Shown here one piece after another: positions 2,630 to 3,999 of a stretch of 6,362 nucleotides of DNA (the stretch's first letter is position 1; every line of letters starts with the position of its first letter). The notes beneath the pieces were generated by a model, which saw only the letters and a program-made list of their open reading frames with translations, was not told where the DNA came from and ran no database searches. The stretch spans positions 1 through 6,362 of IMG/VR virus record IMGVR_UViG_2541047121_000018; one strand, given 5' to 3'. This DNA is from a virus (lineage: Duplodnaviria > Heunggongvirae > Uroviricota > Caudoviricetes). A program made the position numbers and the translations under genes.

Positions 2630-3848
2630 TGGTTTTTCCCTCATCATTTTTTGGGGGCTTAAAATCTCCTGCCGGGTTAGCAGCATTCACGCTTACCAGC
2701 ATCTCATCCAGCCCTTCAACCGGATTCATATCCTCGAATGCGCGGGCTTCATTACGGCTCATCCATCCATCGGTAATAGCGAAGTGATAGAATTGCGCGC
2801 GCTCCTGCGGAGTTCCGCGTAAAAGCCCCGTCAGATTGAACCTAACGTAATACCCGGCGGCTAACTCAGCGCGGGTAAACAAGCGACGGTTAAGCTCCTG
2901 CTCCCAGTTCGTTACCCACGGCATCATCGTGTAGCGGACAAACTGAATCGCCTGCGCAGAAATATTGGAGAAGGTGGCTTTTTCGAGGTCATTAATCATG
3001 TGCGCAGGAATATTGAAAATACCGGCAATCATTGAACGGTTCAGTTTCATCATGTCAATGATCTGAGCGTCAACTGGCGACACAGTCAGTGCCTTGTAAT
3101 CCAGATCGGCTGGCAGCAGCATGGTTTTGTTTTCCTGGCTGCGTAACGCCTGCGATGCCTTCTGCCACTGATCTTTAAGCCAGCCCCAGCTGTCCTTATT
3201 GAGTCCGCTTTTAACGGATACTATCCCCGCCGGACGGGCATTACCGCTGAAGAAGCTTTCTGTGTATTTCTGACCGCTCATCCCCATGCCTATTGTTTCG
3301 GCATGTTGCATAATCGGACTCAGCCCCATCTTCTGATTATTACCCAGCGCACGGATGTGGATCATATCGTCGGGGCTGATCGCAAACGCCCCATATTCGT
3401 TGTACAAACCGTAGGTATATCGGCCACCAGTATTCATCAGCGTCGTTTCCCACGGCATACAGCAATCCAGGGATATGACTTCACCGCGACGATTACGTTT
3501 CACCCAGGTATACCCATTCCCCCAGCCAAGGATGTGACGTTGCTTCAGTTCGCGCCATTTGTAACTGGTTTGCCAGGTATTGGGCTCATCATGAACCAGA
3601 TAAAACGCCGGATGATCGCGTGCGGGCTCAACCTTCCCATTGTGCCTGCGCATAACATGCAACGGCATCTGGGCAAGGCTGGAAGACAGGACATAGATAC
3701 AGGAATACACCGCAGCCAGTTTCATCGCAGTTTCAGGACTGACATAAACGTCTGTCCGGAACAGCCCATCAGTATCAACGGCATCCCCGGTTATCGGGGT
3801 GGAAGGATTCTCCAGTGATTTACTTCTGAACAGAGCATCAAGCAGCAC
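2622..3848 (-). CDS. phage portal protein, HK97 family, 408 aa, with an apparent GTG start
   Basis: ORF track 2622-3848. The first codon is GTG (reverse complement of 3846-3848), preceded by AAGGGGG with a 4-nt spacer. Size and position between terminase and protease match HK97-type portals. The next in-frame ATG (residue 41) has no ribosome-binding site. Confidence 0.9.
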   Translation of the reverse strand: MLLDALFRSKSLENPSTPITGDAVDTDGLFRTDVYVSPETAMKLAAVYSCIYVLSSSLAQMPLHVMRRHNGKVEPARDHPAFYLVHDEPNTWQTSYKWRELKQRHILGWGNGYTWVKRNRRGEVISLDCCMPWETTLMNTGGRYTYGLYNEYGAFAISPDDMIHIRALGNNQKMGLSPIMQHAETIGMGMSGQKYTESFFSGNARPAGIVSVKSGLNKDSWGWLKDQWQKASQALRSQENKTMLLPADLDYKALTVSPVDAQIIDMMKLNRSMIAGIFNIPAHMINDLEKATFSNISAQAIQFVRYTMMPWVTNWEQELNRRLFTRAELAAGYYVRFNLTGLLRGTPQERAQFYHFAITDGWMSRNEARAFEDMNPVEGLDEMLVSVNAANPAGDFKPPKNDEGKTNE

Positions 3849-3999
3849 GCGTCCCCCTTCTGGCCATAGCCAGTGCGCCCACCAGCAGTAAACCGCCGGA
3901 CAGCATCAGAGCCGGAGCCATACCAAACTGCAGGTAAAACCCGCACGTAAGCAGGCCAAAACCAGCCAGCCCGATAACATCAGCAATTAGTGATTTCAT
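3838..3999 (-). CDS. small predicted membrane protein, 53 aa, two hydrophobic helices ([53 protein letters not shown]); not in the supplied ORF track
   Basis: Hand translation of the minus strand. The ATG (3997-3999) overlaps the terminase stop TGA (3996-3998) as ATGA, and the stop TGA (3838-3840) overlaps the portal GTG start region by 11 nt. The ORF exactly fills the 147-bp gap between terminase and portal. Two ~20-residue hydrophobic, Gly-rich segments are followed by a basic C-terminus. Function unknown. Confidence 0.5.

Follow-up and report, generated by a model that had tools for sequence, protein, structure and literature searches.

Comparative data show that a gene of 53 codons, wedged between the large terminase (terL) and portal genes of a 6,362-nucleotide stretch of Caudoviricetes DNA (IMG/VR record IMGVR_UViG_2541047121_000018, positions 1 to 6,362; hereafter the window), is a genuine late phage gene with an inner-membrane helical hairpin of about 50 residues as its product. 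The same data show the gene to be a fixed component of the terL-portal junction in the SfV/P27-like, HK97-type head modules of Proteobacteria. As for its function, our preferred reading, to which we assign a probability of roughly 0.4, makes the hairpin an accessory of the portal/packaging vertex that is embedded in the membrane and would work like the gp40-dependent, membrane-bound portal initiator of T4. The features of the junction are collected in Table 1.

Table 1. Features at the terL-portal junction, in window coordinates.
Feature	Position	Strand	Remarks
Portal gene, 408 aa, PF04860	2622..3848	minus	Constant downstream partner of the small ORF
Overlap of small-ORF end and portal start, 11 nt	3838..3848	minus	Portal GTG at 3848..3846
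Small ORF, 53 aa plus stop	3999..3838	minus	Predicted two-helix inner-membrane hairpin; PHROG 7105 member
AGAAGGGGG, Shine-Dalgarno-like motif for the portal	3853..3861	minus	4 nt before the portal GTG; codes for Arg47-Arg48-Gly49 of the small protein
Helix 2, residues 27-47	3859..3921	minus	The more hydrophobic of the two; no variation at G35 and A42; turn at G26 immediately before the helix
Helix 1, residues 2-25	3925..3996	minus	Gly/Ala-rich; from AlphaFold model and alignment
ATGA overlap of terL stop (TGA) and small-ORF ATG	3996..3999	minus	4-nt overlap; putative termination-reinitiation coupling
terL C-terminal tail, last ~20 codons	3996..4056	minus	Exchanged together with small ORF and portal in natural mosaics
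terL remnant	3996..5408	minus	Nuclease domain and part of ATPase domain; 5′ end lost by deletion

A preliminary description, made from the window sequence alone, had placed a 53-residue membrane ORF at 3838-3999, naming no strand, and had let it fill a 147-bp gap between terL and the portal gene. The ORF is found at this position on the minus strand and the gap is 147 nt; terL ends in ...cta TGA with the small-ORF ATG inside the same ATGA, as described, and the other end of the ORF overlaps the portal GTG by 11 nt. The GC content of the ORF (56%) shows no compositional anomaly beside its neighbours (54% and 51%), and Rfam gave no match in the window. The protein is the hydrophobic, Gly-rich two-helix hairpin that had been proposed, with 11 Leu, 9 Ala and 9 Gly among its 53 residues and a GRAVY of +1.13. 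AlphaFold2, run on a 68-sequence alignment, models helices at residues 2-25 and 27-47 (mean pLDDT 88.7) followed by a disordered tail (48-53); the basic tail reads RRGTRAA. By the positive-inside rule, both termini are predicted to be cytoplasmic, with a periplasmic turn of 2-3 residues, and the predicted cytoplasm-exposed part amounts to only about seven residues per end. A Foldseek search of the model against BFVD returned nothing below E = 1.7, which is expected of a bare hairpin, and no relative turned up among the chains of solved structures when the family profile was searched against PDB sequences.

A frame open over 53 codons is by itself weak proof of a gene, since about 8% of random frames are expected to be open over that length ((61/64)^53, our own arithmetic). 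The case is carried by the comparative sequence data, in which the small ORF is confirmed as a real gene. In 35 well-diverged pairs from nine loci, dN/dS was 0.08-0.42; a value of 0.59 came from one nearly identical pair with only five differences. Residues D7, G13 and G20 are invariant in 29 unique 53-codon copies, G26, G35 and A42 are likewise invariant, and G10 and Y22-L23 are strongly, not completely, conserved. Third positions are free at the invariant Gly and Ala codons (1.3-1.7 bits) and less variable at D7 (0.5 bits). Conservation is strongest within the membrane segments. Profile searches collected 118 representative proteins (50% clusters), nearly all of 45-70 aa, and both ORF length and junction geometry are kept down to about 30% identity.

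The position of the gene was examined in a locus survey anchored on the portal alignment alone, which yielded 59 proteobacterial loci with portal identities of 49-92% from Enterobacterales, Pasteurellaceae, Halomonadaceae, Marinobacter, Pseudomonas, Alcaligenaceae and Aeromonas. A family member lies directly 5′ of the portal gene in every one of them (59/59). The preliminary description had held that small membrane proteins are not a standard part of the terminase-portal junction and had suggested a check of conservation and synteny there; the survey contradicts that view, and YmfR and L37 (see below) occupy the same slot. A 4-nt overlap with the preceding long ORF is present in 41 of 60 related loci, while six more have abutting genes or a 1-nt overlap; at the portal end the overlap measures 11 nt in 24/59 and 4 nt in 27/59. 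Relatives of about 30% identity keep the synteny and the 4-nt and 11-nt overlaps, also where the neighbours are a 580-aa portal and an S49 protease, and the gene precedes the portal in metagenomic loci as well. It does so also in P0096 loci, where the upstream gene is not terL; no match to loci of this type was found by blastn against E. coli genomes or in an IMG/VR scan. Prophages carrying the gene occur in E. coli, Shigella, Klebsiella, Salmonella, Pasteurellaceae, Pseudomonas and many others. In HK97 and in Serratia phage Rovert (portal 43% identical) terL abuts the portal gene directly, and the small gene is absent from Firmicute relatives of the portal; thus, it is not generally required by this portal fold. 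That the region might be portal leader sequence was rejected, since 56/59 proteobacterial loci align with the portal N-terminus MLLDxLF…SLENP starting at its first residue, and a further one starting at residue 2.

Natural mosaics show which parts of the module travel together. In SfIV and e14, an SfV-like terL body is joined to a TerL tail, small gene and portal that are all of P27 type; the joint lies at window position 4057, down to which nucleotide identity is 95.6% to SfIV and 97.6% to e14 and beyond which there is none. Small-protein similarity follows the portal (OLS coefficient 0.53) and not the TerL body (0.10), and TerL-tail similarity tracks the portal as well (rho 0.62, against 0.18 for the TerL body). 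In these alignments the small gene is shown to form a single inherited unit with the portal and the final ~20 TerL residues. The C-terminal tail is, as in lambda gpA, the portal-docking part of large terminases. That the small gene stays with the portal could, on the other hand, be due to nothing more than the fact that the two genes physically overlap.

Upstream of the small-ORF ATG, no Shine-Dalgarno sequence can be discerned. At the 3′ end of the ORF, the tail codons AGA AGG GGG constitute the Shine-Dalgarno sequence of the portal gene and the last three codons overlap its start; most related loci have a G-rich motif at the corresponding point. The codons of R48 and G49 show suppressed synonymous variation, and the third positions of codons 51-53 are invariant. 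The lack of an own ribosome-binding site, together with the ATGA and the embedded portal Shine-Dalgarno and start, suggests that ribosomes pass from terL through the hairpin gene to the portal gene, and the junction sequences indicate translational coupling of all three. A consensus scan of the minus strand between 3400 and 4500, which is weak evidence, found no promoter-like site and one terminator-like match at chance level. A real, translationally coupled phage gene, as had been supposed from the window alone, agrees with both the junction geometry and the dN/dS values that had been proposed as a check (0.08-0.42 in the 35 diverged pairs). The basic tail is likewise present as described, but is largely a nucleotide-level feature that reflects the constraint of the portal Shine-Dalgarno and start on the codons, and is an example of a ribosome-binding site passing for a protein feature.

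The window carries its copy in a decayed prophage, where it is probably a relic; homology of its terL to the intact gene ends at 5319. In the intact prophage used for comparison (L001), the small ORF occupies the terL-portal slot at 9302-9463, and a complete lambda-type lysis cassette (lambda-family holin, GH24 endolysin and Rz spanin at 4481-5754) lies ~4.5 kb upstream of it.

The protein and its family had already been catalogued. An identical protein is found in RefSeq as WP_000838374.1 ("hypothetical protein", PGAP). It is annotated in E. coli 7784, many E. coli genomes contain it, and the gene is marked in two recent phage records. The SfV and SfIV reference records omit it, and SfV has the portal start placed inside it. 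The preliminary description, which called the ORF unlisted and expected annotation pipelines to miss it, was thus right for SfV and SfIV and wrong for PGAP and the two recent records. The protein matches PHROG 7105 over its full profile (E 9.2e-22, residues 1-52 on positions 1-52 of 52); the distant members P0041, P0059, P0088, P0096 and P0116 match it too. The PHROG matches of the family comprise only 7105 and 502, plus 4810 for two distant members, and none of these is annotated as holin. Pfam, NCBIfam and PADLOC gave no match for the window protein, YmfR or the distant members (Pfam and PADLOC at E ≤ 1). Literature searches found no description of the constant place of PHROG 7105 before the portal, and no functional study of ymfR, phrog_502, P27 L37 or a small membrane protein at the terminase-portal junction.

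Profile comparisons point to the small protein as a probable distant relative of YmfR from the E. coli K-12 element e14 and of L37 from the Stx2e phage P27 ("putative integral membrane protein"), both in PHROG 502. The PHROG 502 profile scores the window protein at E 1e-4 (22.7 bits, where compositional bias is possible) and YmfR itself at 2.5e-28; cross-matches of the family range from E 1e-4 to 2.5e-7, and hhalign against the YmfR family gave a probability of 92% (E 6.5e-7, identity ~26%). YmfR and L37 likewise lie between terL and portal, are two-helix hairpins with a G/A-rich helix 1 and a basic region after helix 2, and carry the portal Shine-Dalgarno in the 3′ end of their gene. They differ in being 60 aa long rather than 53 aa, in the accompanying portal, which is only ~27% identical to the window portal, and in having an own Shine-Dalgarno and an 11-nt gap after terL in place of the ATGA. 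Profile scores between hydrophobic hairpins may be inflated by composition; PHROG 7105 and PHROG 502 are best read as sister families of one superfamily. The ymfR mRNA rises by log2 4.5 upon e14/SOS induction (PMC10012262).

In the preferred reading, the hairpin would insert in the inner membrane just ahead of the portal, both being made from one mRNA, and because it is inserted first, portal synthesis and oligomerisation (prohead initiation) would be placed at the membrane. Alternatively, it may be the docking of terminase to portal that the hairpin places there. The small-residue faces formed by G13, G20, G26 and G35 would serve to pack the hairpin or to oligomerise it. This mode of work would resemble that of the membrane-bound, gp40-dependent portal initiator of T4, without kinship to gp40. 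The preliminary description had offered superinfection exclusion, a holin-like activity and membrane anchoring as possible roles; of these, a membrane-anchoring factor is the sole option consistent with the evidence, and fits as a candidate role. Against a role at the portal vertex, the predicted topology leaves little exposed surface for binding a soluble portal, and the membrane-centred conservation would be explained just as well by oligomerisation or by a target in the host membrane.

A somewhat unlikely alternative is a late membrane effector unrelated to capsid assembly, which could tune lysis timing or membrane potential in the way of a pinholin or antiholin, or could be a small inhibitor of a host inner-membrane protein that, for example, blocks DNA entry late in infection; the junction site would then merely guarantee late, abundant expression. 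In pinholins the first helix is rich in Gly/Ala and weakly hydrophobic, and the C-terminus is short and basic. The small protein shares this architecture of class II holins and pinholins such as phage 21 S68, with two transmembrane helices and a charged C-terminus that is predicted to be cytoplasmic; its conservation is concentrated within the membrane, the YmfR family is categorised in PHROGs as 'moron, auxiliary metabolic gene and host takeover', and monoderm hosts whose portals are equally distant lack the gene. It is, however, shorter than known pinholins and lacks a dual-start motif, and its gene lies outside a lysis cassette with no endolysin neighbour. No holin or defence profile matched in Pfam, PHROGs or PADLOC, and T4 Imm showed no similarity (hhalign probability 0.2%); the exclusion/defence comparison covered T4 Imm and the PADLOC models. 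Membership in a holin family, the form in which a holin-like role was assessed, was rejected on the lack of a profile match and on the holin, endolysin and spanin that the intact prophage owns elsewhere. Lysis and exclusion genes normally shuffle independently, whereas this gene keeps a fixed place beside the portal across a wide taxonomy and is co-inherited with the portal and TerL tail. The same fixed presence, in 59/59 related proteobacterial loci rather than sporadically, makes it very improbable that the gene is a moron in the sense of the preliminary description, a gene that was acquired independently and is expressed from the prophage, for instance to bring about superinfection exclusion. 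A small membrane protein inside a prophage and the 'moron' label of PHROG 502 would suit that origin; the ORF, however, overlaps both adjoining genes, has no promoter-like site on its strand and a terminator-like match at chance level only, does not deviate from its neighbours in GC (56% against 54% and 51%), and has in ymfR a probable distant relative that is induced along with the e14 lytic genes.

The coupling at both junctions could also mean that the ORF works mainly in cis, as a translated spacer over which ribosomes are handed from terL to the portal start, setting the portal:terminase ratio, with a peptide of little importance. The missing Shine-Dalgarno, the ATGA overlap, the portal Shine-Dalgarno and start codon embedded in the 3′ end and the suppressed synonymous variation at R48, G49 and codons 51-53 are all in line with this. 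We consider it quite unlikely, as the body of the ORF is under purifying selection at the amino-acid level with synonymous change free, the two-helix architecture and glycine positions persist at 30% identity and also in YmfR and K308 relatives, and HK97 and Rovert couple terL to portal without a spacer. A virion-borne protein, packaged at or near the portal and inserted in the recipient inner membrane at DNA ejection as a pilot or channel, would suit the gene's place inside the head/packaging block and its co-inheritance with the portal; small hydrophobic helical proteins serve DNA delivery in other viruses, and PRD1 P20/P22 are located at the packaging vertex (PMC5850374). This is highly unlikely, given that no relative occurs among the chains of solved structures, that the portals of known structure nearest to this one (HK97 type, E 2e-38) belong to a phage without the gene, and that a 53-aa hairpin with a GRAVY of +1.1 would need a chaperone for solubility before packaging. 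SfV-type phages have, moreover, contractile tails with a tape measure protein, and it is the tape measure protein that usually supplies the membrane channel. The reading of an intergenic leader with a frame open by chance, for which the shortness of the ORF and its omission from the SfV and SfIV reference annotations might speak, is already refuted by dN/dS values well below 1, the conserved length and junction geometry, and the existence of HMM families.

If the preferred role at the portal vertex were extended to the whole group, a membrane-coupled step in HK97-type head assembly would have gone unrecognised in a very large group of proteobacterial phages, with a hairpin that co-evolves with the portal; we regard this broader view as speculative and unlikely. 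While still being made, the hairpin would draw the terL-hairpin-portal mRNA to the inner membrane; once inserted, and probably as a glycine-packed oligomer, it would nucleate the portal dodecamer or keep it in place and would also dock the TerL tail. With the portal held there, prohead initiation and/or packaging would thus take place on the membrane as in T4, by way of an unrelated protein of ~50 aa. No membrane involvement is known for HK97-type head assembly, and a membrane role in head assembly is established for T4 only. HK97-type capsids have no separate scaffolding protein, and how the portal is selected and placed at a single vertex is an open question for them; a portal-linked, translationally chained hairpin is a concrete candidate for a missing assembly or packaging factor. 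The finding also gives context to the E. coli K-12 orphan gene ymfR. Should the gene prove to encode a dispensable late membrane protein, the finding would be an ordinary one.

Among known systems, lambda has a small gene in the same place, between terminase gene A and portal gene B, whose product gpW is a soluble head-completion protein. The protein described here is in contrast a membrane hairpin (GRAVY +1.13) that matched no Pfam family, gpW included. [quoted passage not shown] The likeness to PRD1 is one of description, as the membrane of that virus is internal and its capsid lineage unrelated, and homology is not expected. In T4 the prohead is started on a portal bound to the membrane, and gp40 is needed for its assembly (PMC9958956). 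Gp40, annotated as the head vertex assembly chaperone, is an acidic protein of 114 aa with no hydrophobic transmembrane stretch evident by eye, is encoded far from gene 20, and has no sequence relation to the small protein (hhalign probability 0.05%). What we propose to be common to T4, with gp40 and membrane-bound gp20, and to the phages studied here is an analogy only, namely a phage-coded, membrane-associated factor that would serve the portal at the start of the prohead.

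The 53-codon ORF between terL and the portal gene takes its start codon from an ATGA in which terL terminates (TGA), and the portal GTG lies 11 nt ahead of the ORF stop. Because both junctions are present as stated, the preliminary description of the ORF was correct, leaving only the strand (minus) unnamed. The product is 55% Leu, Ala and Gly with a GRAVY of +1.13, and AlphaFold2 (68-sequence alignment) predicted helices at residues 2-25 and 27-47 with a mean pLDDT of 88.7.

Features of the window
Feature	Position	Strand	Remark
Rz (Rz/RzpD spanin) gene, 3' part only	6197-6362	-	belongs to lysis cassette
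iss/bor serum-survival lipoprotein gene	5872-6165	+	PF06291
terL, 5'-truncated	5408..3996	-	
Small ORF, 53 codons	3999..3838	-	
Portal gene	3848..2622	-	
S78 prohead protease gene		-	
HK97-fold capsid gene		-	
Head-tail connector gene	385..708	-	
IS3-family element, end part	1-346		

The ORF had been described as unlisted and as one that many pipelines would miss. This holds for the phage SfV reference record (NC_003444, our locus L002), where the ORF is intact but unannotated at 2289-2450 and the annotated portal start falls within the ORF, 48 nt ahead of the conserved GTG. However, PGAP annotates it as hypothetical protein WP_000838374.1 in the SfV-like prophage of E. coli 7784, which is 100% identical to the window in this region, and the records of Edwardsiella phage EPP-1 and Klebsiella phage vB_VIPKPNMC05 list it as well, at 162 nt and with identical 4-nt and 11-nt overlaps. 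Over its whole length the protein fits the PHROG 7105 profile (E 9.2e-22); this exact sequence and the family to which it belongs are both catalogued already. Among 1.8 billion representative proteins, a profile search matched 118 cluster representatives, almost all of 45-70 aa, with the common pattern M-K-x-L-x-x-D-x-x-G-L-x-G-F…G-x-Y-L-x-F-G…G. The dN/dS comparison suggested earlier gave Nei-Gojobori values of 0.08-0.42 for nine diverged copies, the sole higher value (0.59) coming from one nearly identical pair with only 5 differences. Residues D7, G13, G20, G26, G35 and A42 are unchanged in all 29 unique 53-codon copies, and since third positions vary at the invariant glycine and alanine codons (entropy 1.3-1.7 bits), selection there acts on the amino acid and not on RNA. 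The ORF is a real gene.

No Shine-Dalgarno motif was found upstream of the ORF in the window, nor a promoter-like site on its strand. The portal GTG is preceded, at a spacing of 4 nt, by a Shine-Dalgarno motif made up of the R47-R48-G49 codons (AGA AGG GGG, 3861..3853), a similar G-rich motif occupies the equivalent spot in nearly all relatives, including ymfR, and synonymous variation is collapsed at R48, G49 and codons 51-53. For these reasons the "basic tail" noted previously is largely ribosome-binding site and overlap, while still conforming to the positive-inside rule.

Loci for the survey were obtained via the portal only (search of one genome per species with portal alignment A4), and the region just upstream of each portal was scored with an HMM of the small family. 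In this check of conservation and synteny, of the kind suggested earlier, a family member lies directly upstream of the portal in 59 of 59 proteobacterial loci, with portals 49% to 92% identical to that of the window and hosts including Enterobacterales, Pasteurellaceae, Halomonadaceae, Marinobacter, Pseudomonas, Achromobacter/Alcaligenes, Idiomarina and Aeromonas. Members are usually 47-60 aa and end 1-11 nt within the portal start or at most a nucleotide or two away, with one outlier (17-nt overlap). The sole broken copy, frameshifted (L149, 2855-3011), belongs to the genome-degrading symbiont Candidatus Symbiopectobacterium endolongispinus. An Anaerolineaceae MAG (Chloroflexota; L166, 2729-2902) carries a 57-aa member before its portal (E 6.5e-9; phrog_502 E 6e-10); with this locus included, the stop of the upstream long ORF and the small-ORF ATG form an ATGA overlap in 41 of 60 loci, and a further 6 have the two genes adjoining or sharing 1 nt. 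Metagenomic members of ~30-40% identity keep the order HNH-terS-terL-x-portal-protease-capsid and both the 4-nt and 11-nt overlaps, even where the portal is of 580 aa and the protease of the S49 type. On metagenomic contigs carrying the distant member P0096 (L087-L089), the place of terL ahead of the small gene and portal is taken by short unknown ORFs plus a T-rich stretch resembling a terminator, which could represent a satellite or rearranged module. No publication on the strict tie to the portal was found.

In K-12 e14, SfIV and P27 the same slot holds YmfR/L37, a hairpin protein of 60 aa assigned to PHROG 502, for which the P27 record gives "putative integral membrane protein"; the SfIV ORF (L173, 2304-2486) has the YmfR sequence but no annotation, in a terL-portal gap of 193 nt. 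YmfR/L37 and a protein of 67 aa that Vibrio phage K308 encodes there are probably distant relatives of the small family, with hhalign probabilities of 92% and 95.6%, respectively, which may be inflated by hydrophobic composition. Down to 4057 the window terL is 95.6% identical to SfIV and 97.6% to e14 at the nucleotide level; past it, both differ in type, all at once, in the final ~20 codons of TerL, in the small gene and in the portal (27% identical). Across 50 loci, small-protein similarity went with that of the portal (OLS coefficient 0.53) and not with that of the TerL body (0.10), and the TerL tail likewise followed the portal (rho 0.62, versus 0.18 for the TerL body), all given without P value as locus pairs are non-independent. 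In genetic terms the small gene is locked to both portal and TerL tail.

The TerL tail itself (last ~20 residues; window 3996-4057, compared with e14 (L003), L172 and SfIV) occurs in two types, one ending …YEKEDTLSDHIESYGIRSL. Because tail type changes with portal type and the remaining TerL is constant (95-98% identical), the tail is suggested to be a portal-specific docking element. The K-12 orphan gene ymfR (L003, 3317-3499), flanked by terL and portal remnants, corresponds to the small gene in position and, distantly, in sequence. When SOS is induced, its mRNA rises by log2 4.5 along with that of other e14 genes (PMC10012262), consistent with lytic-cycle expression.

Compared with the intact E. 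coli 7784 prophage (L001), the window has lost 1,342 bp (L001 6640-7981) at the junction 5312-5319, with 8 bp of microhomology. Gone are terS as a whole, the larger part of the HNH endonuclease gene and ~410 nt from the 5' end of terL. The loss is recent, since the sequence on either side is 100% identical to that of the intact prophage. The IS3-family element, which is multicopy (up to 49 places per genome) and abundant in O157:H7, truncates the prophage within the head-closure gene, of which 42 nt remain (window 347-388), and all that would follow the head-tail connector gene is gone. Given deletion and truncation, the prophage is dead and the small gene here, though intact, is probably a relic.

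The small protein belongs to no family in Pfam, NCBIfam or PADLOC, has no relative among solved structures, gave nothing useful in a fold search, and no paper on its function was found. Holin-family membership was rejected, as no holin profile matched and the intact prophage has its own complete lysis cassette, separate from the small gene. Kinship with the T4 exclusion protein Imm and with the T4 head vertex assembly chaperone gp40 was likewise rejected, the small protein being unrelated to either.

The small gene is a conserved, coupled late gene for a predicted inner-membrane hairpin. We favour, with a probability of about 0.4, a role in which the protein would act with the portal or packaging vertex at the membrane. 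T4 sets the precedent: there, prohead formation begins at a membrane-bound portal and requires gp40 (PMC9958956). A late membrane effector not related to assembly, which sits with the predicted hairpin and less readily with the lock to the portal, is rather unlikely. The gene as a cis-acting coupling spacer, with the overlaps on one side and the amino-acid-level selection on the other, is improbable, and a virion or ejection protein more doubtful still. The moron suggested previously, set beside the fixed place before the portal, is very improbable.

The gene was absent from Firmicute loci (L156-L171 range, portals ~35% identical and as distant as that of the Anaerolineaceae MAG) as well as from HK97 and Serratia phage Rovert, and is thus clade-specific and not universal. 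Its absence from HK97 is, together with the short cytoplasmic exposure of the protein, the chief weakness of the proposed action at the portal vertex.
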